Source of the DNA: Escherichia phage vB_EcoM_PHB13
Sequence record: MK573636
DNA length: 64,000 bases
Strand: one strand, 5' to 3'
Positions within the stretch are counted from its first letter, which is position 1. Each line of letters starts with the position of its first letter. The position numbers and the translations under genes were made by a program. The notes under the pieces were generated by a model. That model was not told the origin of the DNA, ran no database searches, and worked only from the letters and a program-made list of their open reading frames with translations. This document shows, piece after piece, positions 15,558 to 62,296 of this stretch.

Positions 15558-15590
15558 GAAGGGGAGGCCGAAAGGCTTCCCCTTTAAGTT
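15558..15590. terminator. convergent-gene terminator hairpin
   Basis: Stem GAAGGGGAGGCC / GGCTTCCCCTT with GAAA loop between convergent genes; T-run on the - strand side (after holin). Confidence 0.5.
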
Positions 15591-16245
15591 ATCTAATCCT
15601 TCCGAGGATTCTGGCAGATTGATTGCAAAGAGTATCTAAATTCTCAATGTCAATATCCGGTTTATTCTTCCATGAAATGGCGATACTACCAGAATAGACA
15701 TTATCGAGATTGAATATAGGACAAGAATACATGAAACCTATATCGATATTCTCTAATTTCTTTTCTCTTGATGGAATATACTGGAAATCTTTATCGGTAA
15801 AATATGATTTACCTAAAAGATGCCTACGATATTCTTCACTCGTTTTATTGATAGGGAATCCGCCTAAATTTTTTTCATCGATTGTGTGTGGTAGCTTTCC
15901 TTCATATGCCACCAAATCAACAAAATAGTTTAGGTTTTTCGGACGAAAACTAAAAACAGCAGAAAAATCGGCATCAGCCGACACATGAACTATCTGTAAC
16001 TGCTCCTGTGCTGCATTATCAAAATTGCGGTCTTTCTCTACCTGGAGAATGTGAGCATAAGTCTCATAACGAGTCTCTTTATAAAGCGCAAATAACTCGT
16101 TTTTACTATAAACGACAAATGCCAATATGGACAACACGACGGCAGCAAAAACACGAAGTACGAGCAACTCCGTGCTTTTAGTTGTGAAAATAGCGCGCAG
16201 GACATTTGAGATAGCAAAGTCTTTCCCTTTTTCAGAAACTTGCAT
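15589..16245 (-). CDS. t: holin T (218 aa)
   Basis: Matches T4 holin T: ...YKETRYETYAHILQVEK...EQLQIVHVSADADFSAVFSFRPKNLNYFVD...AYEGKLP...MYSCPIFNLDNVYSG...ARILGR; same length. Confidence 0.9.
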   Translation of the reverse strand: MQVSEKGKDFAISNVLRAIFTTKSTELLVLRVFAAVVLSILAFVVYSKNELFALYKETRYETYAHILQVEKDRNFDNAAQEQLQIVHVSADADFSAVFSFRPKNLNYFVDLVAYEGKLPHTIDEKNLGGFPINKTSEEYRRHLLGKSYFTDKDFQYIPSREKKLENIDIGFMYSCPIFNLDNVYSGSIAISWKNKPDIDIENLDTLCNQSARILGRIR

Positions 16246-16558: not shown

Positions 16559-19477
16559 TTAATTCTTTTTAAGTTCCGCTAGTTCAGCTTTAACGGCTTT
16601 CAATTCTTCGCTCATTTCCTGAAACGCCTTAATTAAAAGAGCGTTGACAGCAGAGTTAGAAATTGTTAAGATCTCTTCTGGTTTATCTGGATCGCCGATC
16701 TTAGAAGTTGTTACTGCTTCCGGCAATTCTTTTTCAAGATCCTGAGCAATAATACCAACTTCATGAGCGATAACAGTGCGGTCCGTCAAAGACTTAACCT
16801 TATCGTAGGTGTACACAGTCAAGCGATTAACTTTATCGGTGGCATTCTCCTTATACTCTTCCTTGTTGATTTTCAGACGAGCATCAGAACGAATATACAC
16901 ATCGTTAAACGAACCGTTACGTCCTGCCGACATGTCACCGGTGGCGCTAAAGTCAAAGTTGGCGTCATTAACGTTTAGGCGTGCTATAGCATTACCTATA
17001 GTGCCGCCAGGAACGTGTACACCCATTGCCGCAATATGATATTTTCCCCAATGAGTCGCTTTCCAGATGTTATGAGCGGAATCGGTTGATTGAGGACAGT
17101 CTACGAGGATTCCGGCAGAACGATCACGCCAGCTAGCCCAGCTACCACCAGCAACACTACCACGAATCAAACCTTTATCAGATCCGCCGACGCTACCAGA
17201 TTCCAACTGGATCATTTTATCTGCAAATTTCCACACCTGGGCTTGTTTCTGACCACGGAAGCGAATAACACCAGCATCATCGCAGTACATCAAGCCTAAC
17301 TCTAAACCGTTCGGATCTCTAAACCAGATGTGCTTATTGCCAGTACGACGAAAATCAATATCAGAACCGCCCAAAATAATATTACCGCCAGTGGTAATTG
17401 CTTGCGGCCTAAGAGTACCGTTGATGGCAAACTCGATTAATTCAGTACCCGGACCGCCAGGTCGGTGGGTATACCAATGCCACCCGCTTTCATCACCGCA
17501 TTCAAATATTTGTTTACGACTATCGTTACCCCATACACGTAGAGTAAACGTAGATGCGGCGGTCCCTTTACCCCATTTAATTTGACCAGCAGATTCCAAA
17601 TCACCGAAGAATTTAGTTTTAATCGCACCAGTTGATAAAGTACGTTCAGTGGTGAAGTGTGCACCCATGCTATCGTCAAGCTGTAAGATGTTATCACGCG
17701 CGTTATTGCTATCGCCCCAATGGTTAAACCGGAAGTAGTCGCGGGAATTTAATCGCCCAGCGTCGAAAGTCAAATGCCCTTTCTTAATGTAAACGTCATT
17801 ACTAAAGCGAGCGGCACGAGAAGCACGTTCTAACGTTAATGCTTCTTCGTTACCATCACCGCCTAATTGAACGTTACCGGAAGTTAAATCATAAATGAAT
17901 GGACGATAGCTATTCCATCCACCAAAACGATCATTTTCGGCAGTAGAAAGAAGATAAACTTTAGTGCCGTCATTACGCCAGAATGCACCGTAATTACCAA
18001 AGATCATACGGTATGCATTAGAGTTAGCGGAATAATATTGTCCGTTGGTATATACAATTTTTGTTTTTCCTACCGACAGCGTAACCTGACCAGTATCATC
18101 CAGTCTTAATGAGTTAGTACCTTCCGTTAATTCATTTACTAACTGTACGGTGTTAGTAGTAGCGTCACCATACCCTAGATAACCTTGACGGCGGTTAGCA
18201 CCGGAACGATAATCATAAAATTCTAGGTAATTACTTTGTCCGTCTCTACGCTCCATTCTGATAGCGTTATTTCCCTTAACGAAAAGACGATTTACAGTAA
18301 CCCCATTAAAATCAATTTTTAGTTGGTCTGACTGATCAGTAACGCCAGTAGCTAAACGATATACGCCACCCTCGACAACCTCATGCCATATTGTTTCTGC
18401 GGATTTGCTACGAAACTTACGAAGATATTTTTTATTGCTATCAGTCGAGTTATTCAAGCTGATAATATCATACGTTCCTTGACCGTTATTATCAAACATC
18501 AACGTTCCGGCTTTGTTTTCGGTGTTGAACATGGTAATAACACGAGCATCAAATTTAGTTCCGGTTTCTGGTTTAGTCGCCGAAAATTCAGGAACATCGT
18601 GAACAGTCAATGCAACATCAACAGTTTTTCCAAACTCTACAATAACGTTATCAGTGAAGCGACCATAGTTAACATAAATGTCATAGTTATCACCGGAAGT
18701 ATTAATTGCAAATACTTCATGGACGTTCAAAGAATTTCGACGATATGCAGCAATACTAACGCCTTTAGGGTTATTATTACCACTACGAATCACAATTTCA
18801 AGGAAATCCACCTGATCGTAGGAGTTAACATTAAATCCGTTCCCACCATAGATTCGCAGAAACGCCATCCGACCACTCTGCGGGATCATTGCGGATGCAA
18901 TTTTAAAATAACCACGGGTTGCTCCACCAGAAGGAGTAGACATTTTAACGTTCTTAACAAACATACGGTCAATTTCTTGTTTGCTATAGACGTTCAATTC
19001 TGAGGGAGTAGGTTTATCACCTTCGTGATACATGCGAAAGCTGAATCTCTTGTTACCATCCTTATCAAAGCCATAGGTTTTAACCTGAGAGGAACTAGAA
19101 CCATATTGAAATTCGAACCCGCGACCGTGTGCTTTACCGCTGGGATGAGGAATGTTCAGAATCAAGTTAGACCAATCATCAGCATTATTCGGTCGAAACG
19201 CACCAAAATAATTAAGATCTCGCGCGGTTTGGTCTTCAAAATAATTAGCGGTTTTACTTAAAATATAATTATTTCCTTTAACCTTACCCGCCATTGTAAC
19301 ATCGCTGTCATAAACCGGAGGACAACTTAAATTGATAATAGCACCGGAATCATTTTTAGTAAGAAGATATTGATCCGCAAGGTTGATTGCCAATTCCCCC
19401 GGATTCATCGTACTAGCATCCGGTCGACGACCTTTAGTGCTAGTGCGTTTAAATTGGATTCTGCTTAAATCTGCCAT
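16559..19477 (-). CDS. 37: long tail fibre distal subunit gp37 with C-terminal intramolecular chaperone domain
   Basis: N-terminus MADLSRIQFKRTSTKGRRPDAS...GELAINL matches T4 gp37; C-terminus ...SDARLKINKEEY...AVKAELAELKK resembles S74-type self-cleaving chaperone domains. Confidence 0.85.
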   Translation of the reverse strand: MADLSRIQFKRTSTKGRRPDASTMNPGELAINLADQYLLTKNDSGAIINLSCPPVYDSDVTMAGKVKGNNYILSKTANYFEDQTARDLNYFGAFRPNNADDWSNLILNIPHPSGKAHGRGFEFQYGSSSSQVKTYGFDKDGNKRFSFRMYHEGDKPTPSELNVYSKQEIDRMFVKNVKMSTPSGGATRGYFKIASAMIPQSGRMAFLRIYGGNGFNVNSYDQVDFLEIVIRSGNNNPKGVSIAAYRRNSLNVHEVFAINTSGDNYDIYVNYGRFTDNVIVEFGKTVDVALTVHDVPEFSATKPETGTKFDARVITMFNTENKAGTLMFDNNGQGTYDIISLNNSTDSNKKYLRKFRSKSAETIWHEVVEGGVYRLATGVTDQSDQLKIDFNGVTVNRLFVKGNNAIRMERRDGQSNYLEFYDYRSGANRRQGYLGYGDATTNTVQLVNELTEGTNSLRLDDTGQVTLSVGKTKIVYTNGQYYSANSNAYRMIFGNYGAFWRNDGTKVYLLSTAENDRFGGWNSYRPFIYDLTSGNVQLGGDGNEEALTLERASRAARFSNDVYIKKGHLTFDAGRLNSRDYFRFNHWGDSNNARDNILQLDDSMGAHFTTERTLSTGAIKTKFFGDLESAGQIKWGKGTAASTFTLRVWGNDSRKQIFECGDESGWHWYTHRPGGPGTELIEFAINGTLRPQAITTGGNIILGGSDIDFRRTGNKHIWFRDPNGLELGLMYCDDAGVIRFRGQKQAQVWKFADKMIQLESGSVGGSDKGLIRGSVAGGSWASWRDRSAGILVDCPQSTDSAHNIWKATHWGKYHIAAMGVHVPGGTIGNAIARLNVNDANFDFSATGDMSAGRNGSFNDVYIRSDARLKINKEEYKENATDKVNRLTVYTYDKVKSLTDRTVIAHEVGIIAQDLEKELPEAVTTSKIGDPDKPEEILTISNSAVNALLIKAFQEMSEELKAVKAELAELKKN

Positions 19478-40866: not shown

Positions 40867-41190
40867 ATGTCAAAACTGATATACATTGTTATCATATCTG
40901 TGTTGCTGGGGGTAGGTGGCAATATGTGGTGGGAAAATAAAAAGGAGGTAGATCGACTGAATCAGGAATTTACAGAGTATAAGAAAAAGACAGATGAGAA
41001 GATGAAGATTGTAGACTCACTACAAAAGGAGATGTACGGAATAAGAACTAAGTTTGCAGAAGAACAAAACAAAGCAATGAAAGACGCTACACGAGGCTAT
41101 GTAGTAGCACAAAAACCCAAGTTGGTAGAGAAACAGCTTAATGATTCATTTAAGGAGTTTACCGAAGAATTAAAGGAGGCTACTAAATGA
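40867..41190 (+). CDS. putative i-spanin (107 aa)
   Basis: N-terminal TM helix (LIYIVIISVLLGVGG) then charged coiled-coil region; next to pseT like the T4 i-spanin PseT.3. Confidence 0.5.
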   Translation: MSKLIYIVIISVLLGVGGNMWWENKKEVDRLNQEFTEYKKKTDEKMKIVDSLQKEMYGIRTKFAEEQNKAMKDATRGYVVAQKPKLVEKQLNDSFKEFTEELKEATK

Positions 41191-41306
41191 GCATAGAAAT
41201 ATTGCCTACACAAGAGCAGATAAGCAATTTTAATCTGGTTGATTATCTGTGGATAGGTGCAAGCATTATTATCCTGATGGTGTTTTCAATTTTCGTGATA
41301 CACTGG

Positions 41307-41639
41307 ATGTTTAAGAAAGCACATAAGAATTTTCAGACCGCCATAATCCATGTCTTCGCTGTGCCTATTGTATTTGCTCTTTCTTCGTGTACAATGGACC
41401 ATTATTCACAGGAACCGAAATTACATCCTCCACTACCAGCACCAATAGAAAAAGTTGACATTGACCTGAATGTGGATACAATAGACGGTAAGCCTAGAGT
41501 TTCTATGTCGTGGGAGGACTCCCAAAAATTTAGAGTCTGGTTGGCTGATATTAAGAGATATACACTTGAAAGTAAGTTGATCCTGTGTTATTATCGCAAA
41601 GAACTCAATGAGGAACGGTGTAAACCGAAGGAGAAATAA
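41307..41639 (+). CDS. putative o-spanin lipoprotein
   Basis: From ATG 41307: signal peptide MFKKAHKNFQTAIIHVFAVPIVFALSSC with lipobox LSSC; the ORF track starts earlier at 41187. Confidence 0.45.
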   Translation: MFKKAHKNFQTAIIHVFAVPIVFALSSCTMDHYSQEPKLHPPLPAPIEKVDIDLNVDTIDGKPRVSMSWEDSQKFRVWLADIKRYTLESKLILCYYRKELNEERCKPKEK

Positions 41640-45251: not shown

Positions 45252-46734
45252 TATCATTAATCAGCTTGCAGCAACAGACAAAACATCGCTGAAAGAAAAG
45301 ATCCTGAAAGAATCTGCAAGCAATGAAACGCTGAAAGAATGCTTTTATCTGGCATATTGCAAACAGGTTACGTTTGGCGTAAAGAAATACGATAAACCAT
45401 CGCGTTATTCGTCTGTATTGTCTTTATCCGGTGCATTACAGGTCTTTAAAAATAAACTTGCCACGCGTCAAGTAACTGGTAACGCAGCATTACAGCTAGT
45501 TACCGATACTCTGACTTGCTTGTCAGAAGATGATGCTAAAGTTGCAATGATGGTCCTGAATCGTGATCTGGAATGTGGTTGTTCCGCTACCACTGCAAAC
45601 AAGGTATGGAAGAAACTGATCCCCCAGCAACCGTGTCACCTTGCATCGTCATGTTCTGATAAGACTATTGCTAATATCAAGTATCCGGCGTATGCACAAC
45701 TTAAAAGCGATGGCGCTCGTGGTATGGCTGATATTGACGGGGAAACATTAGCAATCTATACCCGTTCAGGTAATACCTATCAGGGACTTGATGATTTGTT
45801 TGCGGTTTTAGAGCGTCTACGAGGCCGTGGAATTGTTCTAGATGGCGAATTGGTATATATGCCTACCCTTTCGCAAACACCAGCGCAGAACTTCGTTGAG
45901 AGCATTTATGATGGTACTCTGTCATGGATATTTGAAGAAGAGGAAATGCCATTAACGCCAGTAGCGGAAGCAGTAAAAGAATCCGTTGTTGCAGATCGTC
46001 AGACCGGAAATGGTATCCTCAACAAATCACTGAAAGGAACTATTCCAAAAGAAGAAGCCCAATGTATTGTTTACACTGTCTGGGATGTTATCGACCGTGA
46101 TGTGTATTACGGAAACGAGAAAGCAACGAAGCAATATAAAGATCGATTCGAAGAACTAAAACAGATTGTTGAAGAACTTAACGATCCTCGTGTTCAGATA
46201 ATCGAAAACACTGTAGTTAACAATATAGATGAAGCTCGCGAAGTATATCATCGCTATGTAAACATGGGCTTAGAAGGTATTATCCTTAAAAATTTACATG
46301 GTGTATTTGAAGATCGTCGCAGTAAAGATCAGGTTAAATTTAAAGAAGTGATTGACTTCGACGCGGAAATTGTTGATGTATATCCGCATAGTAAAGACCC
46401 TAATAAGGTAGGCGGTTTTACTGTCCGTAGTGCGTGCGGACGAATGATGACTAACACCGGATCGGGATTGACTGACACCACAACCGAAAAAGGTGATGAT
46501 GGTATTGAACGTGTAATTCCGTTCGATCGTCGAAATGAACTCGACCGAGAAATGTTATGGGCTGACCGTCATAACCTGATTGGAAAAGTCATTGAGATGA
46601 CATGCAACGGGTATATCCGCAGCAAATCACGTAAAGAAGATGAACCGGAGTTCTCTTTATTTCTCCCGATCATCAAACGTATTCGCTACGACAAGACCAC
46701 TGCAAATACAGTAAAAGAGGTATTCGATGTGTGA
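45232..46734 (+). CDS. 30: ATP-dependent DNA ligase
   Basis: ...AYAQLKSDGARG (adenylation lysine motif)...VLDGELVY...EGIILKN...KFKEVIDFD... matches T4 gp30 (487 aa). Confidence 0.9.
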   Translation: MKMSILNIINQLAATDKTSLKEKILKESASNETLKECFYLAYCKQVTFGVKKYDKPSRYSSVLSLSGALQVFKNKLATRQVTGNAALQLVTDTLTCLSEDDAKVAMMVLNRDLECGCSATTANKVWKKLIPQQPCHLASSCSDKTIANIKYPAYAQLKSDGARGMADIDGETLAIYTRSGNTYQGLDDLFAVLERLRGRGIVLDGELVYMPTLSQTPAQNFVESIYDGTLSWIFEEEEMPLTPVAEAVKESVVADRQTGNGILNKSLKGTIPKEEAQCIVYTVWDVIDRDVYYGNEKATKQYKDRFEELKQIVEELNDPRVQIIENTVVNNIDEAREVYHRYVNMGLEGIILKNLHGVFEDRRSKDQVKFKEVIDFDAEIVDVYPHSKDPNKVGGFTVRSACGRMMTNTGSGLTDTTTEKGDDGIERVIPFDRRNELDREMLWADRHNLIGKVIEMTCNGYIRSKSRKEDEPEFSLFLPIIKRIRYDKTTANTVKEVFDV

Positions 46735-55084: not shown

Positions 55085-57136
55085 ATGTTTAACTTAGAAA
55101 TCGACGATCTAATGATTGAATCTTTCGAGAAATGGCTGTTGACGGAAGAGGAAGAAAACTTTGGCAGTATTGCTCCGGTACAGTGCTTAAAGCCTAAGCA
55201 GAATCCTAAACAGCTTTTTGCAGTACAGACACGCGATAAAGATGTGATTGTCCGTCTTTGTAACTTCACCAACAAAACACCTAAAATCATTCGTATGGGT
55301 GACAAGACCGCACATGTTGTACTGTGCGAAATGAACAAAAGCGGTCGTATTGTACAGCTTAAAAATGGTCTAGGCGATAACCCGATTGCAGTTATGGCAA
55401 GTGCTTTTGATGTGGTTATGGAAACAGCCCGTAAAGCGCAATTAGACGCTGTTATGTTCCGTTTTAACGTATCCCGCATGAAAGGTAAGACCGAACTGGT
55501 TAAGCGCGTTATAGAGCGTTTGGTGCGTCGTACACCGAAGTTTGAAGTATTCCAGCAGGAAGTAATGACCAGCAAAAAGATCGCTTTAGTTGTTGTCAAG
55601 CGTCGAGGTATGGCGATTGATAAGATTAAAGGGATTAAACTTGATGAATCCTTGTTCACTAAAGTAGAAAGTGATTTAGGTGATCGCTGGGTATCTAAAG
55701 CTACTGGCGAATCTCTGACTAAAGATGAAGCATATGCGGCTAGTCTTGTGTCAGAAGAAGAACGAAACGCGGAAGCAGAACAACGCGTAGCGGCTAAATC
55801 TCGTTTGACTAAAGAAGAAATGCTGAAAACTCAAGCGACCTATAACAGCGACTATGTGAATCATCCAGAAAAAATTAATCTTAAACCGGAAGAAGATATC
55901 ACCGAAGCAGAACCTAAGAAACAGTTTAATACTCTGATTGACCGTCAAGCCTTAGAACGTTCAACCGCCCGTTCTCTGAATGACTGGACAAGTGATATTA
56001 TCACTCGCTATGGTTTCATGCGTACTATTTTTGAAAGCGAAGCCGATGCAAAATACGCAGTAAGCGAACTGGTAAAAGTTCAGGACCAATATGATCCGTT
56101 GTCTGCGGAAGTTATCGCAGCATCAATCAAACGCTTAAAAGAAATCATGAGCGAGGAAGTATTCGAAAACAAGATCACTGCGTTGGCAATGGATCGAGTA
56201 GACCAGTCTATGCCAGCAGATGTAAAAGCTGAAATGCTGCGTAGTCATATCACACAGATTAAAACCGATGCCCTTCGTAATGTTGCCTCCGGTATGTTTG
56301 AAGCAATTGCAAGTAACATGGGTGAAATGATGGCAGATATTGATCTTGACCTACCAGGCGCGGAAGGTTTTGTGTTGAGCGAATATGCGGATGCAGCATA
56401 CATCAATATGAACAACTTCCTAACCGATCGTAAGCTGGATGAGTTCGAAGGGATCGCTGACCCAGAAGAATTGGTCAAGATGTGCGACGCACTGGATAAT
56501 GCCTTCGCTAACTATGGCGTTAAACTTGATCCGGGTACTATTCTGTATCGTGGTATGGACTTCCGGTCTCAAATGTGGGAAACTGCACGTAAGCAAAAAG
56601 CGTTTTACTTTAAAAACTATGTGAGCACTTCCCTTGCACCTAACATTTTTGGCGGCTGGAATGCAAACGTGGCTAGTGCCGTTGCTGGTGTTGATTCTAT
56701 GGCTGGCTCTCGCGGTGAAGGTGGCGCGAATGTTGCTTTCTCCATTGCTGGCGCGGAAAACATCCCTGTATTGCCAGTAGGTAACAAAGCATTTGCTTAC
56801 AAAGAATGCGAGATTTTACTTCCTCGCGGTGTTGTGTTATCCTTTGATACGGTAACTCGTGCTACGGCATCGACGGATTCACAAGAAACATATTACATTG
56901 AGGCACATATTATGAACAAAAGTGAACTGGCAGCATTACAAGAATCTGGCGAAATGATCGCGGATGGTGATGCATTCATCCGTGAAGGTGTTGTTAAACC
57001 TGCTTCTGACCTGTCTTTCTCCAGATTCATTACAGAAGCTAAAACCGAACGTAAGAAAGCAGATAAGGCAACTCTACGTCAGCTTATCGCTGATCTGGTG
57101 TCTGTAGACGCAATGCCAGATAAATTTAAAATGTAA
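55085..57136 (+). CDS. alt: Alt ADP-ribosyltransferase (683 aa)
   Basis: Length equals T4 Alt (682 aa); catalytic region LYRG...YVSTSL...ECEILLPRG (R / STS / E-x-E) and C-terminus ...PDKFKM match T4 Alt (...PLKFVM). Confidence 0.85.
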   Translation: MFNLEIDDLMIESFEKWLLTEEEENFGSIAPVQCLKPKQNPKQLFAVQTRDKDVIVRLCNFTNKTPKIIRMGDKTAHVVLCEMNKSGRIVQLKNGLGDNPIAVMASAFDVVMETARKAQLDAVMFRFNVSRMKGKTELVKRVIERLVRRTPKFEVFQQEVMTSKKIALVVVKRRGMAIDKIKGIKLDESLFTKVESDLGDRWVSKATGESLTKDEAYAASLVSEEERNAEAEQRVAAKSRLTKEEMLKTQATYNSDYVNHPEKINLKPEEDITEAEPKKQFNTLIDRQALERSTARSLNDWTSDIITRYGFMRTIFESEADAKYAVSELVKVQDQYDPLSAEVIAASIKRLKEIMSEEVFENKITALAMDRVDQSMPADVKAEMLRSHITQIKTDALRNVASGMFEAIASNMGEMMADIDLDLPGAEGFVLSEYADAAYINMNNFLTDRKLDEFEGIADPEELVKMCDALDNAFANYGVKLDPGTILYRGMDFRSQMWETARKQKAFYFKNYVSTSLAPNIFGGWNANVASAVAGVDSMAGSRGEGGANVAFSIAGAENIPVLPVGNKAFAYKECEILLPRGVVLSFDTVTRATASTDSQETYYIEAHIMNKSELAALQESGEMIADGDAFIREGVVKPASDLSFSRFITEAKTERKKADKATLRQLIADLVSVDAMPDKFKM

Positions 57137-57153: not shown

Positions 57154-57194
57154 TTGACTCAAACGGGGACTAGTTTTATACTAGCCCCGTTTTC
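57154..57194 (+). promoter_or_regulatory. promoter with stem-loop that may also terminate alt transcripts
   Basis: TTGACT 57154-57159; stem GGGGACTAG...CTAGCCCC around TATACT (57177-57182), followed by GTTTTCTGTT. Confidence 0.5.
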
Positions 57195-57214: not shown

Positions 57215-58039
57215 ATGTTCAAGAAATTACAGGATTTTCGTCTTTCAGAAGAATCACGCGAATCAATGATGGAACGTATGGATAATTACATCGAAACATA
57301 TGACATTGAGGGGATTAATGGTTACATGATCACTGAGATGATCAGCGATCAGATTAACTTTGATGATTATGTGAAGGTTATCCGCTTCCTTGAGCGTGAG
57401 ACACAAGATTATGGATTTGTCAAGAAAATCATTAATGTGATGTATGAAGTACACTCCGAAGACTTTGGAGATAATGTATTCAAACATTACAAACATAACA
57501 ACATAACCCCAGCAGAATATAATGCAATCTGTGATTATGTGTCTGAACAATACGAATGGGTAAATGGTGCTCTCTTAGGGGAAGAAGACATGACCGATGA
57601 GATATCAGAGATTGTTGATTTGATGGATTGCGCCATGGATAAAACCGAAAAGTTAAACGGTACTCTTTATCGCGGTCAACATCTTGACATTCAGACAATA
57701 GAGCGTATTATTGAAGATAAGGAATTTACCTTTAAAAACTTTGTGTCAACCAGCATGACACCGATCATCTTTGGAGGCTGGCTATCAAACAGCACTAGCC
57801 TTTATTGTGAGAATCGATATGAATCCATGACCGGAAAGATGCAACATTCTTGTAATGTATCGTGGGTAATTGACGTAAAAGATCATAAAGGTTTTGTTGT
57901 TGGGTCAATTGCATGGAATCCTTGCGAATGTGAAGTAATTTTACCGCGCGGGACTTGCGTCAAGGTAAACGACGTAGTAGAATCTTTCGGTGATGAGAAT
58001 CGTAGACAATTTACAATTTTCGGTGAGGTGACTAAATGA
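57215..58039 (+). CDS. second, shorter ADP-ribosyltransferase (Alt paralogue, 274 aa)
   Basis: LYRGQ...FTFKNFVSTSMTPIIFGGW...CECEVILPRG parallels the Alt catalytic region (FYFKNYVSTSLAPNIFGGW...ECEILLPRG). Confidence 0.7.
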   Translation: MFKKLQDFRLSEESRESMMERMDNYIETYDIEGINGYMITEMISDQINFDDYVKVIRFLERETQDYGFVKKIINVMYEVHSEDFGDNVFKHYKHNNITPAEYNAICDYVSEQYEWVNGALLGEEDMTDEISEIVDLMDCAMDKTEKLNGTLYRGQHLDIQTIERIIEDKEFTFKNFVSTSMTPIIFGGWLSNSTSLYCENRYESMTGKMQHSCNVSWVIDVKDHKGFVVGSIAWNPCECEVILPRGTCVKVNDVVESFGDENRRQFTIFGEVTK

Positions 58040-58548
58040 AAATGATTAAACTGATTGGTCTTGCGGCTTTAGTGGCTATGCTTAATGGGTGCGCTGTGCA
58101 TGATCTGGCACTTGCATCTAAGAATACACACGAGTTTGTACGGTCATGTGAACGATGGCAGAAAGAGTCACGTTTTCCATTTAATAGCGTTGAAGATTGC
58201 GTGATTGACTACCTTGAAAAGAAAGACGCCTCATTACAGCGTTTAGGTCGTCAACCGGAATCAGCAGAACAGATCGCAAAGATTAAGGCAGATAAAGAAG
58301 CAGAGAAGAAACGCATTTACGAATATTATTATGGTCATGAAAATTCAATTGAAGAAATGAATCGCAAAGCAATGGAAGATGCCGACCGTCGTAGAAAATT
58401 TGGAGTATGTGTAATCGGGACGGAAGCAGCATATCAAGATGATCTTTCGGCTGCATATGAGGAAGGGGATTATGAAAAACTTCAATTGCTACAATCAAAA
58501 CAGTATCGCTATAAACTACGCAAACAATGTGATGATTTAATCAAATAA
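58036..58548 (+). CDS. putative lipoprotein (170 aa)
   Basis: Signal peptide MKMIKLIGLAALVAMLNGC with lipobox LNGC; charged mature part. Confidence 0.55.
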   Translation: MKMIKLIGLAALVAMLNGCAVHDLALASKNTHEFVRSCERWQKESRFPFNSVEDCVIDYLEKKDASLQRLGRQPESAEQIAKIKADKEAEKKRIYEYYYGHENSIEEMNRKAMEDADRRRKFGVCVIGTEAAYQDDLSAAYEEGDYEKLQLLQSKQYRYKLRKQCDDLIK

Positions 58549-58575
58549 AAGGCGGGGATTATCCCCGCCTTTCGC
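58548..58575. terminator. bidirectional terminator between convergent genes
   Basis: Hairpin GGCGGGGA-TTAT-CCCCGCC with T-runs on both strands (TTTCGCTT on +, TTTTATTTGA on -). Confidence 0.6.
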
Positions 58576-58578
58576 TTA

Positions 58579-59511
58579 TCAGAACCAGTTAGTGACAGTA
58601 TTCACCACACGCCCACCAACGCCATTTAGACGCGATAAAGCATTACCAGCAGCAGATAACCCACTATCAAGTAAATTATTGCCGAACGTGTTTGTTATTG
58701 CGTTTATTGCCTTATCCTCAATCCATTCTCGCGCGGCTTGCTCTCCTACAGCACCAGTTTGCATAGAACGATATGCGAAAGTAACATCGAATGTTGTGAT
58801 TTCGTTGTTGTTTTCATAGTTTAATTCCGGTGCACTCACACCAACAGGAACACAACCATTAAACATCATGATCGTGTGAGGAACTCCCATTCGGTTATGT
58901 AAGTTGACCTGAATATCTGCTTCAACGTCAACAGGAAGCGCACGAAGCCCTGTAACGGGGTCTTCTACTGAGTTAACCCAATCCTGCATTGCTCGATAGT
59001 TTGATGCGCTAGAGTCCATTCTAAAGCTCAATACAAGCGGATCGAAATCACGTCCGGTAATTCGAATGTTTGGCGCATTGTGGTTACGGTCCATTTCATA
59101 ATTCAATCTGTTTTCTGGAACCTTAACAGCATACACCAGAAGACCGCTTGTCTTATATGCCATATTGAACCAGTCAAGCGCATATGTACCAACATCAAAT
59201 TGCCCCAGAAGAGATTGAACTACGCGGGATGACATTGCACCTAAAAGATACTTTTTGACACCAGATGAATCAACAGCACGCCTAACACCCTGTACAGCAA
59301 GATTTGTTAATGCGTCAGTATAATCACCACGAGTAATCCCGAAATAGTCATTTAATGCATTTGGTATAATATCATATACCGCACCGCCCATACTTTCTAG
59401 GATCGCTTGTGTCTTATTACTTGGAGTGGTGGCAAATGCCACGCTGAATAAGTTAGATCGCTGAAAGTCAAGGTTAGCGGCTTGTTCGTTAAAGTCATTT
59501 AAATCAAACAT
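58579..59511 (-). CDS. 54: baseplate tail-tube initiator gp54
   Basis: 310-aa - strand ORF in the gp54 position next to alt; size close to T4 gp54 (320 aa). Confidence 0.7.
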   Translation of the reverse strand: MFDLNDFNEQAANLDFQRSNLFSVAFATTPSNKTQAILESMGGAVYDIIPNALNDYFGITRGDYTDALTNLAVQGVRRAVDSSGVKKYLLGAMSSRVVQSLLGQFDVGTYALDWFNMAYKTSGLLVYAVKVPENRLNYEMDRNHNAPNIRITGRDFDPLVLSFRMDSSASNYRAMQDWVNSVEDPVTGLRALPVDVEADIQVNLHNRMGVPHTIMMFNGCVPVGVSAPELNYENNNEITTFDVTFAYRSMQTGAVGEQAAREWIEDKAINAITNTFGNNLLDSGLSAAGNALSRLNGVGGRVVNTVTNWF

Positions 59512-60569
59512 TATGCCGCACTCCCAAATATAGTACCACGGGAAAGTGTCAAGATCTCTCTAAATGATACTTCCAGAACAAAGGTACTCGGCAAGTTAGG
59601 AGAAATAGCAAGGCCATTAAACTTACCATCAGGCGACTTGTCCAGACGTACACTTGAGATCTGAGCGGGACCAAATGCATCGCTACGCCCTTCAAACGAT
59701 GTACGCTTACCGAAGTTAGAGATCATCCATATTGTCGGGTTAGATACAGTAATTGCGTTTGATAGAAAATCGGTGATCCCTTCAAACAGAGTATCATTTC
59801 TCTTCGCTTCCTCTGGGGTGGATTTTCTCAATAGTGTATTTTTATACCACGCATCAACTTCCGCTTTTAGTTCTTTTGCGGTGCTTGAAATACCACTAGA
59901 TCCATAAGACAATTCTAAAAACGTTTCGTATATGATCAGAATATTGCGAAGGTCTTCAATACTACGTGGGGTTAAATGCCATACATAGTTTTTAGTTCGT
60001 GCGTCAGCACCCGCATACATGCTTCGTGCAGTATTATAAATCTGTTCACCGTGATCGGCAAGGTATCCACCAGTAATACTTTCGATACCACCAAAAACGG
60101 CAGTAGATGCCATATTAGAAAGAGCACCGCCTAAAGTACCACCGCCGCGAGAAATGACAGATTCACCAACATCATTAAACTTATGGCTAGCAGCGTCAAC
60201 GTCAGATTGACTACGAGGAAGAAGAATATTAGCAATTGCCTCTCGGTCAAATGCAGCATTTCTCCCACCCAAATTTAAATCAAAACCAGCGATATTAACG
60301 CTACCACCAAAACCACTAGCAACATTTTTCTTTTTCCTGAAATCACGCAACGATCCGGTAGTACGAGATGTATAATCGTATGCAGTGAATAACAGACCAT
60401 TATTATATAAGTCGTTGATATAATAACCGCTAGCATCATTACCGCTAGCACGTTCAGCGGGGAATTGAGCGGTTAATGTTTTCCCTTTATTTTTTGAGGT
60501 AAAACCAGCGGAGGTTTTAACCCCCGCTTTAAAGCTATCAACGGCATCATTGATAACACTAATTTTCAT
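59511..60569 (-). CDS. 48: baseplate tail-tube junction protein gp48
   Basis: 352-aa ORF coupled to gp54 (start/stop overlap); size close to T4 gp48 (364 aa). Confidence 0.7.
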   Translation of the reverse strand: MKISVINDAVDSFKAGVKTSAGFTSKNKGKTLTAQFPAERASGNDASGYYINDLYNNGLLFTAYDYTSRTTGSLRDFRKKKNVASGFGGSVNIAGFDLNLGGRNAAFDREAIANILLPRSQSDVDAASHKFNDVGESVISRGGGTLGGALSNMASTAVFGGIESITGGYLADHGEQIYNTARSMYAGADARTKNYVWHLTPRSIEDLRNILIIYETFLELSYGSSGISSTAKELKAEVDAWYKNTLLRKSTPEEAKRNDTLFEGITDFLSNAITVSNPTIWMISNFGKRTSFEGRSDAFGPAQISSVRLDKSPDGKFNGLAISPNLPSTFVLEVSFREILTLSRGTIFGSAA

Positions 60570-62296
60570 TAAAAGTTCCCCATATTAATTGTACCGGGGG
60601 CATCAATTCTAGTTGTTGGTGCACCCTGTTTAATAGTTCTATTGTTTGTTACAATTTGTGTATTATTTACGTTTGAGGTCTGATTTGTCGTTTGTTGCTG
60701 GATTGCAGCTTGTTTCTGCATTTGTTCAGTACGTTCCGCTTGTTTTGCTGTTTCCGTTTCAGTTGCAGGAACAGGATTAGTTGGAACCACACCATTAGTT
60801 TTATCAGCATACATCTCATCAAATTTTTCAATAAGACGCTCTAACTGAGAACGATCACTTTCAACTAATGTAGGATCTTGAACTTGCTCACGGTAAACAT
60901 CAATATCCTTTTTCAACTCTACCATTCTTTCTTTGTCATAGTCACCGCTCAAATTCTCCATAACTTCATTAATATTATTGATCGCACCCTCGCTTTTAAT
61001 TCTAAGTTTACGACTAGCAGATCGTTGTTCAGCAGAAACAGACTTGTATTCCCCTCGTTTTAATTCTTCTTGTCGTTTCTCTGCGTCAACATCCTTTTGA
61101 TCTCTCCAGCCCAGACTAACAAGACCTTCATTAAATTTATCTTTAATAGATTCGCCTATGGCCTCGCCAATATCACGGGCTTTTCCTGTCCATCCTGTGC
61201 GCTCTCCATATTTGTCTTCTTCGTGTTCAGACTCGACCTTATCCATTAATTCGAGTTCTCTGTCATTTGGCTTATAGCCTTTAGCAACAGCAGACTTTAA
61301 AGCACCGTATTCTAAATTATCGGCATAATCACCCATACCAGGGATCATGCGAAGAATTTTAGCAATACCAGTAGTGATAATTCGATCAAGTTGGATAAAG
61401 GTTTTATAGAATGCATCACCAATACCCATAACCAGCGATTTAATTAATTCTTTATATTCTCCTTTAGACCAATAATCTCGAACCTGACGAACAGTAGTTA
61501 AAATATCGCTAATAGGACCAGCCCATCCTCCGGCCTTATCCATAAATTCATTGAATTTTGTTTCGAATAAATCACTCCAATATCTGAAATGAACCATCAG
61601 GGTATCAATAACAAAAACAATACCCAGCAAAATAGCACCCCATTTTGCGGCTTCTGCCATTGCGGTTAAGGTGATCTTAAATAACATCCCTAAGACCTTA
61701 TTAGAGATTCCTATGGTTTCTTTAAATCCACCACGAACAACTTTAATAAGATTTTCCATAGAGTCTTTATCTAACTCTTTCCTTTTCTTCTTTTTGTCTT
61801 CCTGTTCAGGTTTCCTCTTAGGGAGATTCTGATAATTGTCGTTGTTAGGTTGTTCAGGGACAGTAGGCAAAACTGGCTGAGGTGATGGCATTGTTTGCGG
61901 TTGTTCCGGTTTTTTCAGTGCTTCTTCAATCGCACCAATACCGCTAGCCATTTTACTGACAACACCAAATCTACGTTCCATCATAACACCAAAACCACGT
62001 AATTTCTCATTCATCTGAGAAGAGAAATTATTGAGTTTTTGCAATTCTTCATAAGTTTTTTGGGTATTGCCAGCGGTAGATTGTGTATTTTCTGCCGTCA
62101 ATTCATTGGCTGCGGTGTTATCCTCTACCGCACCAACAACTTCATTAGATTTTTGTTCCACTGTCTCCGCCACCAATTCGGTAGCGGCTTGCAAATTATC
62201 AATAGAATCAAGTTTATCTAATTTGTTAAGTTTATCAATCGGGTTTTCTTCCGCTTCCTTGCGCATCCCGCGAAATGATGTTAATGCGTCATTCAT
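60569..62296 (-). CDS. 29: baseplate hub / tail-length determinator gp29
   Basis: 575-aa ORF, size close to T4 gp29 (590 aa), in the 28-29-48 order. Confidence 0.7.
   Translation of the reverse strand: MNDALTSFRGMRKEAEENPIDKLNKLDKLDSIDNLQAATELVAETVEQKSNEVVGAVEDNTAANELTAENTQSTAGNTQKTYEELQKLNNFSSQMNEKLRGFGVMMERRFGVVSKMASGIGAIEEALKKPEQPQTMPSPQPVLPTVPEQPNNDNYQNLPKRKPEQEDKKKKRKELDKDSMENLIKVVRGGFKETIGISNKVLGMLFKITLTAMAEAAKWGAILLGIVFVIDTLMVHFRYWSDLFETKFNEFMDKAGGWAGPISDILTTVRQVRDYWSKGEYKELIKSLVMGIGDAFYKTFIQLDRIITTGIAKILRMIPGMGDYADNLEYGALKSAVAKGYKPNDRELELMDKVESEHEEDKYGERTGWTGKARDIGEAIGESIKDKFNEGLVSLGWRDQKDVDAEKRQEELKRGEYKSVSAEQRSASRKLRIKSEGAINNINEVMENLSGDYDKERMVELKKDIDVYREQVQDPTLVESDRSQLERLIEKFDEMYADKTNGVVPTNPVPATETETAKQAERTEQMQKQAAIQQQTTNQTSNVNNTQIVTNNRTIKQGAPTTRIDAPGTINMGNF

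Follow-up and report, generated by a model that had tools for sequence, protein, structure and literature searches.

T5 Llp and T1 Cor are early phage lipoproteins that inactivate receptors (PMC11990801), and Llp, Cor and an Rtp-type factor are all encoded beside the gene for the receptor-binding protein (PMC11990801; preprint 10.64898/2026.04.02.716166). In T4, the early envelope proteins Spackle (Sp, gp61.3) and Imm act after adsorption to keep out superinfecting T-even phages, while o-spanins such as lambda Rz1 and T4 PseT.2 are outer-membrane lipoproteins with a periplasmic domain. Here we describe a gene of Escherichia phage vB_EcoM_PHB13 (sequence record MK573636), analysed within a stretch of 64,000 nucleotides that is called the window throughout. 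The source phage is a Krischvirus, i.e., an RB49-like T4-type coliphage, and the gene at positions 58036-58548 almost certainly encodes a lipid-anchored protein that is placed under the host outer membrane early in infection. In kind, this would be another early phage lipoprotein; what sets it apart is that its fold has no match, that it is larger, that its gene lies elsewhere in the genome and that its polymorphism is of a cassette kind.

The likeness to T5 Llp lies in an early phage lipoprotein that is anchored in the outer membrane, faces the periplasm and contains disulfides (PMC11990801). Llp, however, has about 60 residues in its mature form, its gene adjoins that of the receptor-binding protein, and its target is a TonB-dependent transporter with a plug (FhuA is blocked), whereas the Krischvirus lipoprotein has 152 residues, is predicted to be all-helical with four internal cysteines, and has its gene in the alt operon, a long way from gp37 and gp38. 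Cor (T1, phi80 and N15; phrog_1119) is likewise a small phage outer-membrane lipoprotein, but Cor genes lie in the tail-fibre region (PMC11990801) and the Krischvirus gene does not. Sp, with 97 aa, is soluble in the periplasm, where it inhibits the gp5 lysozyme, and Imm is an inner-membrane protein, both unlike a lipoprotein tethered to the outer membrane, and an hhalign comparison of T4 Spackle with the lipoprotein aligned the signal peptides only (probability 7.7%). The o-spanins also have conserved cysteines, and the lipobox LNGC is seen among them, but o-spanins are small Pro-rich proteins, expressed late, whose genes pair with one for an i-spanin. In PHROG, Pfam and PDB fold comparisons, the window protein resembled none of Llp, Cor, Spackle and TraT in sequence or fold. 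The defining features of the Llp, Cor, Spackle, TraT and spanin families were looked for and found absent, which places the protein outside all of them.

The lipoprotein signal and the alt operon

The gene is the final one of the early alt operon (Table 1). The first-pass annotation had called an open reading frame (ORF) with precisely these limits and had set it between ADP-ribosyltransferase genes and baseplate genes; both statements were confirmed. Alt and a short Alt-like ADP-ribosyltransferase, here named ART2, lie upstream, and the convergent genes gp54, gp48 and gp29 lie downstream. The ATG of the lipoprotein gene overlaps the TGA stop of ART2 in an ATGA. Purifying selection (see below), a Shine-Dalgarno sequence, the conserved Gly-Cys of the lipobox and the rarity of comparable signals in shuffled windows exclude, at the level of sequence, a chance ORF and identify a real gene with a real signal. 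When a relaxed lipoprotein-signal filter was applied to all six frames of the window, it picked out the lipoprotein gene, the o-spanin candidate and, spuriously, two short ORFs, and the same filter gave 0–3 matches, mostly 0, in each of 20 shuffled windows.

The predicted signal peptide is charged at K2 and K5 and continues into the uncharged hydrophobic core LIGLAALVAML, with a mean hydropathy of 1.4–2.3 in windows starting at residues 1–10. Within the lipobox, Leu at -3, Gly at -1 and Cys at +1 fit the consensus, and only Asn at -2 deviates. Gly-Cys (G18, C19) is invariant in 29 family sequences, in most of which position -2 is Thr, giving the canonical LTGC, and in the others Asn. The LNGC-type signal peptide was found joined to all three types of mature domain that are described below, namely A (window), B (JK32) and C (Skers), and LTGC likewise to several; hence both signal types appear to be maintained in working genes. 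LNGC is listed among the deviant lipoboxes of phage o-spanins, and the more deviant lipobox AWAC works by experiment (Kongari et al, PMC6139136). The prevalence of LTGC in relatives, the invariance of Gly-Cys and the o-spanin precedent argue that LNGC is still a working lipobox. In addition, the homologue in phage W115 (RB49-type) is annotated as 'putative lipoprotein' in a study whose authors used LipoP, and the KFS-EC homologue is named 'Lipoprotein' in UniProt. The earlier claim that an LNGC signal peptide marks a lipoprotein is thus well supported, as both the signal and the lipobox cysteine are conserved throughout the family.

In E. coli, the Lol rule sends lipoproteins whose +2 residue is not Asp to the outer membrane. 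The +2 residue was Ala in nearly all of the 29 sequences, Thr or Val in two, and never Asp, so that sorting of the lipoprotein to the outer membrane is expected. The first-pass annotation had offered either membrane; the non-Asp residue at +2 predicts the outer one.

Several signals around the gene point to early expression. A sigma-70-type promoter-like site lies upstream of ART2 and the lipoprotein gene, and the record of phage GEC-3S carries an annotated promoter at the equivalent of this site, which probably acts as a promoter. The T4-type late promoter TATAAATA occurs three times in the 64-kb window, never near the lipoprotein gene. Based on these consensus matches, ART2 and the lipoprotein gene look like an early two-gene unit. 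Beyond the stop codon, the hairpin of a bidirectional terminator (RNA fold of -19.6 kcal/mol, z = -4.7) coincides with a place where the GEC-3S record annotates a terminator on both strands; Rfam gave sub-threshold matches only, all on this terminator.

The order Alt, ART2, lipoprotein and convergent gp54 was the same in E26, RB49, Whisky, Skers, KFS-EC, PTE-Eco09 and others, as well as in two metagenomic loci (L007 and L009). In these distant relatives, where ART2 is 27–41% and the lipoprotein about 25% identical to the window proteins, the ART2 stop and the lipoprotein start also overlap or abut. The equivalent position of T4 (locus L010, 4066-4451) holds alt.-1 and alt.-2, by annotation remnants of a partial alt duplication, followed by Alt.-3. 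T4 thus has only remnants, whereas Krischvirus and its distant relatives have kept a second, short ADP-ribosyltransferase intact, and it is paired with the lipoprotein gene in every case. Alt.-3 was considered as a counterpart of the lipoprotein and rejected, being unrelated in spite of its position. A toxin-immunity pair with ART2 is unlikely, as ART2 has no export signal and the lipoprotein would leave the cytoplasm.

Table 1. Positions in the window of the lipoprotein gene, its parts and the other genes and signals discussed
Feature	Position	Strand	Description
Lipoprotein gene	58036-58548 (including stop codon)	+	ATG start; 170 codons, 170 aa including signal peptide
Signal peptide, residues 1-18, MKMIKLIGLAALVAMLNG	58036-58089	+	Predicted from hydropathy and charge pattern; conserved in 29 relatives
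Lipobox L16-N17-G18-C19	58081-58092	+	Read from the N-terminus MKMIKLIGLAALVAMLNGC, then Ala
Cys19 codon	58090-58092	+	Predicted lipid-modified first mature residue; next residue Ala20 (+2)
Mature domain	58093-58545	+	151 residues after Cys19; predicted all-helical
Invariant Cys38; Cys55	58147-58149; 58198-58200	+	Conservation in 29 sequences
Invariant Cys125; Cys165	58408-58410; 58528-58530	+	Conservation in 29 sequences
Hypervariable cassette	58060-58542	+	Sliding DNA identity, MAFFT alignment of six phages
Shine-Dalgarno GAGGT	58025-58029	+	Read from sequence; 6 nt 5' of the lipoprotein ATG
Early promoter-like site TTGACT-17-TATACT	57154-57182	+	Sigma-70-type; consensus scan, 10/12 positions; upstream of ART2 and lipoprotein gene
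Bidirectional intrinsic terminator hairpin AAAGGCGGGGA-TTA-TCCCCGCCTTT	58548-58572	both	Terminator scan; common to convergent gp54
Alt ADP-ribosyltransferase	55085-57136	+	683 aa; PF03496; phrog_802, E 3e-179
ART2, short Alt-like ADP-ribosyltransferase	57215-58039	+	274 aa; PF03496, E 3.5e-17; phrog_15144, E 1e-197
gp54	58579-59511	-	Convergent late gene; gp48, then gp29 beyond
gp54-gp48-gp29 block	59511-62296	-	Convergent tail-tube/tape-measure genes
gp37 distal fibre gene	16559-19477	-	972 aa; ~38 kb from lipoprotein gene
i-spanin	40867-41190	+	107-aa type II membrane coiled-coil protein, N-terminal transmembrane segment; just upstream of pseT
o-spanin	41307-41639	+	Pro-rich lipoprotein, lipobox LSSC, Cys28; internal ATG of 150-aa ORF 41187-41639

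The mature domain and its exchange between phages

The mature part of the protein, 152 residues when Cys19 is included, is hydrophilic with an isoelectric point of about 6, has two prolines and contains no further hydrophobic segment. Exactly five cysteines were present in each of the 29 sequences, one in the lipobox and four in fixed alignment columns, and Asp64, Gly71 and Gly144 were invariant as well. Two AlphaFold2 runs, based on 10 and 25 sequences, gave mean predicted local distance difference test (pLDDT) scores of 81 and 83 and predicted template-modelling (pTM) scores of 0.47–0.49, and both placed helices at residues 31–42, 52–69, 77–99, 105–143, 146–152 and 155–169. In these models the four cysteines fall in four different helices, which make up two helix-loop-helix units, a layout that suggests disulfides 38-55 and 125-165. 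Four conserved cysteines in an exported protein fit a mature domain located in the oxidising periplasm, and the models describe what would probably be a periplasmic protein, stapled by disulfides and suspended from the outer membrane.

The family corresponds to PHROG 16112 (the RB49p182 family), to which no function is assigned; the window protein matches it over its full length (residues 1–170, E 3.7e-12), relatives match phrog_16112 down to E 1e-103, and RB49p182 sits at the same genomic position. Using tblastn, we found the family in 58 phage records, all Krischvirus. Profile searches of 5.8 billion and 1.8 billion proteins returned 9–24 clusters, all Krischvirus-like and none with a Pfam domain; IMG/VR contributed two family loci, and plasmids (relevant to TraT-like proteins) and E. 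coli genomes gave no family match. Pfam, NCBIfam and PADLOC produced noise only for the lipoprotein and 13 relatives. The best match in a PDB sequence-profile search was non-significant (E 0.64), and Foldseek comparisons of the two AlphaFold2 models with the PDB gave no match with E < 1 and TM-scores of 0.33 at most; in a viral structure library, family members alone matched. An ORF in E26, another in G37-3 and the PHB13 protein of this library all match the lipoprotein with 100% identity. In the E26 record (MN655998.1; locus L001, 5001-5510), no coding sequence is annotated over the identical ORF, and other Krischvirus records read hypothetical protein. Hence, what is already known of the gene consists of database entries as 'hypothetical protein' or 'putative lipoprotein', and a literature search found no study of the gene or its family.

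Two metagenomic proteins require separate mention. P0005, a 171-aa protein from a metagenome-assembled genome of Caudoviricetes, is intermediate between types A and B and has been named automatically as an 'outer membrane protein assembly factor', a label that no search reproduced. P0012 (489 aa) consists of five near-identical tandem copies of a unit of about 100 aa and matches the family profile at positions 67–151 (E 4e-12); it was rejected as a relative, as a signal peptide is missing and its make-up suggests an artefact of assembly or of repeats.

Within the genus, the identity of the lipoprotein ranges from 28 to 100%, against 97–100% for the holin, 98.8–100% for gp5 and 99–100% for Alt and ART2. 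Three types can be told apart. Type A comprises the window, E26, G37-3 and 011D4, with a 91% variant, A', in PTE-Eco09 and AV108; type B comprises Whisky and JK32 and is about 47% identical to the window; type C comprises RB49 and 50 other records and is 28–33% identical to the window. The window allele is thus the rarer, with an identity of 28–30% to the commoner RB49 type. The DNA of the window and RB49 is 96–100% identical up to about position 58059, near random from 58090 to 58542, and again 86–100% identical at the terminator, and at the protein level the comparison with RB49-type phages gave 99% for Alt, 99–100% for ART2 and 100% for gp54, against 28% for the mature lipoprotein. By these identities the coding part of the mature domain is swapped, with the signal-peptide sequence and the terminator as borders.

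The structure of individual alleles agrees with such an exchange. Skers (L004, 3001-3489) is a chimera of the LNGC-type signal peptide of the window and an RB49-type mature domain, and JK32 (L014, 1001-1513) joins the same type of signal peptide to a Whisky-type mature domain; these chimeras place recombination break-points inside the gene, directly after the lipobox. Types A and B have a C-terminal module in common (GTEAAYQDDL...YRYKLRKQC) but not the N-terminal one, as if two modules had been shuffled separately.

The ratio of nonsynonymous to synonymous substitution rates (dN/dS) of the lipoprotein gene was 0.29 among type C and 0.22–0.25 between A and A', compared with 0.02–0.05 for ART2 and gp54 in the same comparisons. 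By these ratios the gene is functional and constrained, its protein evolves 5–7 times faster than those of its neighbours, and there is no overall positive selection. The adjoining genes gp54, gp48 and gp29 exist in two haplotypes in the genus (loci L003, L006, L014 and L015): gp29 is 92–96% identical in 54 records and 54–66% identical in PTE-Eco09, AV108, JK32 and Whisky. The window carries a type A cassette in an RB49-like backbone (gp54 100%, gp29 96%). The gp29 region of Whisky is annotated as two ORFs (537 and 1113 nt).

What the lipoprotein may do in the infected cell

From these features, a path for the protein can be drawn with considerable confidence as far as its place in the cell. 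Sigma-70-type early promoters would transcribe the gene together with ART2, and the ATGA overlap would couple its translation to that of ART2. Sec would export the product, signal peptidase II would cleave it once Cys19 carries the lipid, and Lol, given Ala and not Asp at +2, would carry it to the inner leaflet of the outer membrane, from where a helical domain of about 150 residues, stapled by two disulfides, would face the periplasm.

Its function is a more tentative matter. A possible role, and the one that we favour, is that the lipoprotein alters the envelope of the infected cell such that later-arriving phages fail, i.e., broad superinfection exclusion at the envelope, and that it possibly also protects progeny from cell debris. 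It would act after adsorption, on the tail tip or the genome-delivery step under the outer membrane. We prefer this to masking of a surface receptor because the known Krischvirus receptors are hard to mask from the periplasm, because the alleles ignore adhesin type, and because Imm and Spackle are apparently lacking in these phages. No homologue of T4 Imm or Spackle was detected by tblastn (E up to 1) in RB49 positions 1-70000 and the window, the block 70-106 kb being left out, and the syntenic intervals hold unrelated genes, namely dc1 and dc2 between 61 and 41 and a gene for a 62-aa soluble protein between uvsX and 43. With no homologue detectable in the regions searched, functional replacement of Imm and Spackle by the lipoprotein is conceivable. 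Conflict with competing phages or with variable host envelope components would in that case explain why the alleles are so deeply divergent. It is rather doubtful, though, that the family forms a structurally new class of exclusion proteins that replaces T4 Imm and Spackle in Krischvirus, with three recombining alleles that set exclusion specificities between coliphages circulating together.

Several observations weigh against superinfection exclusion by a fast-evolving lipoprotein, at one or another of its steps. Asn at -2 is non-canonical, and both strict PROSITE-type patterns and the pattern [LVI][ASTVI][GAS]C fail on the lipobox. No characterised exclusion protein resembles the lipoprotein in sequence or fold, and the literature search yielded no paper on the family. 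The alleles do not co-vary with gp38, the gp37 tip or gp5, nor with gp29 beyond physical linkage, and thus point to no phage partner. Moreover, some of the hypervariability is better described as introgression from a diverged lineage than as rapid evolution in place, since the A' and B alleles co-occur with the divergent gp29-gp48-gp54 haplotype. Finally, in the distant metagenomic relatives the lipoprotein is no more diverged than the adjacent ART2.

As an unlikely alternative, the protein could condition the envelope or counter a host defence: its helical domain would bind a component of the host envelope and keep the cell intact, or silence a response, until lysis. Suggested targets include, for example, a peptidoglycan hydrolase or its inhibitor, Lpp/Pal/Tol, the Bam or Lpt machinery, or an envelope defence or stress sensor. 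The predicted topology at the interface of outer membrane and peptidoglycan, the probable co-transcription with the host-takeover enzymes Alt and ART2, and a fast, allele-rich evolution typical of host-interaction genes are all consistent with such a role, and the automatic name of P0005 offers a lead only. However, the searches above showed no similarity to host-binding families, no PADLOC or PDB match and no homologue in E. coli genomes or plasmids, and no specific target is indicated.

Quite improbable, in our estimate, is receptor masking, the function that the first-pass annotation had put forward. Here a lipoprotein of the Llp/Cor type would bind the periplasmic side of OmpA and inactivate it as a receptor, thereby blocking adsorption of phages and adsorption of progeny to debris. 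The known receptors of Krischvirus are OmpA loops, O-antigen and the lipopolysaccharide core, and RB49-like phages use OmpA and O-antigen via gp38 (PMC9569957; preprint 10.64898/2026.04.02.716166). Early expression and the topology of an outer-membrane lipoprotein resemble Llp and Cor, and 6 of 13 relatives gave weak matches to the Cor PHROG (E 0.0014–0.016). Most of these matches, however, are confined to the signal peptide (residue 1 to roughly 20), and the longest two extend to residues 53–54; the window protein itself had no Cor match at E up to 0.1, and there was no fold match. Membership of the Cor family through these matches was rejected, as they rest largely on signal-peptide similarity. 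OmpA would also lack a plug domain through which a periplasmic binder could act.

The genomic position argues in the same direction. The first-pass annotation had stated that phage lipoproteins at such positions often mask receptors; this is inaccurate, as known masking lipoproteins adjoin the receptor-binding gene, and the gene described here is adjacent to neither gp37, some 38 kb away, nor gp38. In RB49, the gp38 adhesin gene is found at 45.4–46.1 kb (45367-46143; locus L025, 13368-14144), about 65 kb from the lipoprotein gene. Some 108 kb separate it from gp37 there: it lies in an early-gene region, not beside gp37 and the holin gene. Directly beyond the distal fibre gene of the window, with a gap of about 300 bp, comes the holin gene t (15589-16245).

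We also compared the lipoprotein alleles with the adhesins, using the 60 best gp38 matches, among which G37-3 (type A) is not found. The group with gp38 at least 94% identical to that of RB49 contains RB49, Phi1, JSE and KFS-EC (type C), AV108 and PTE-Eco09 (A') and Whisky (B), and the group at 81–84% contains E26 and 011D4 (A), JK32 (B) and GEC-3S, Sf20 and the Makalu phages (C). Alleles A, A', B and C are thus spread over both gp38 groups and also over the types of gp37 tip. The gp37 tip of the window was closest to those of Phi1 (91%) and RB49 (90%), both of type C, while the tips of E26, 011D4 and G37-3, whose lipoprotein is identical, were 79%, 79% and 56% identical to it. The adhesins of RB49, Cognac and Whisky are similar and that of Brandy is divergent (Efimov et al, PMC9569957); Brandy, with the most divergent adhesin, is nevertheless of type C, and Whisky, with an RB49-like adhesin, of type B. 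By the gp38 groups, the gp37 tips and this mismatch of Whisky and Brandy, the lipoprotein allele is unlinked to receptor specificity. Co-variation with gp5 was likewise absent, gp5 being 98.8–100% identical in all Krischvirus records whatever the lipoprotein allele. With homology, position and co-variation with adhesin and gp5 all negative, the masking proposal is left unsupported. As a side observation, the gp37 tip of the window was at most 91.5% identical to that of any record, and there the phage is not identical to any deposited genome.

Finally, it is very improbable that the protein is a component of lysis, whether as an additional spanin (o-spanin-like or unimolecular) or as a regulator of holin or spanins in the periplasm: phage outer-membrane lipoproteins are most often o-spanins, LNGC occurs among o-spanin lipoboxes (PMC6139136) and the helical, coiled-coil-like content resembles spanin periplasmic domains, but a complete separate spanin pair is present and reported as core in the genus (Rz and Rz1), no type II membrane protein is encoded next to the gene, there is no C-terminal transmembrane segment, and the expression signals are early, not late. 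The specific forms of this idea were rejected in turn. A two-component o-spanin disagrees with an upstream gene that encodes a cytoplasmic ADP-ribosyltransferase, with two prolines in 152 mature residues and with the real pair at 40867-41639; a unimolecular spanin of the T1 gp11 type disagrees with the hydrophilic C-terminal 50 residues (windowed hydropathy -0.4 to -2.5); and an antiholin disagrees with the presence of rI in RB49 and with an invariant holin, 97–100% conserved against 28–100% for the lipoprotein. Within the real pair, the longest-ORF call (41187-41639) probably over-extends the o-spanin.

Consequences for Krischvirus biology

Krischviruses are broad-host-range coliphages that are used in therapy cocktails. 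They have no recognisable Imm or Spackle, and the lipoprotein family is a candidate for the handling of superinfection and of adsorption to debris. The exchange of cassettes amounts to a natural experiment, with three alleles in near-isogenic backbones, so that the question is easily tested. If the exclusion role were false, the gene would be one more fast-evolving early accessory gene. If it were true, the design of cocktails would be affected, as the phages combined in a cocktail could interfere with one another.

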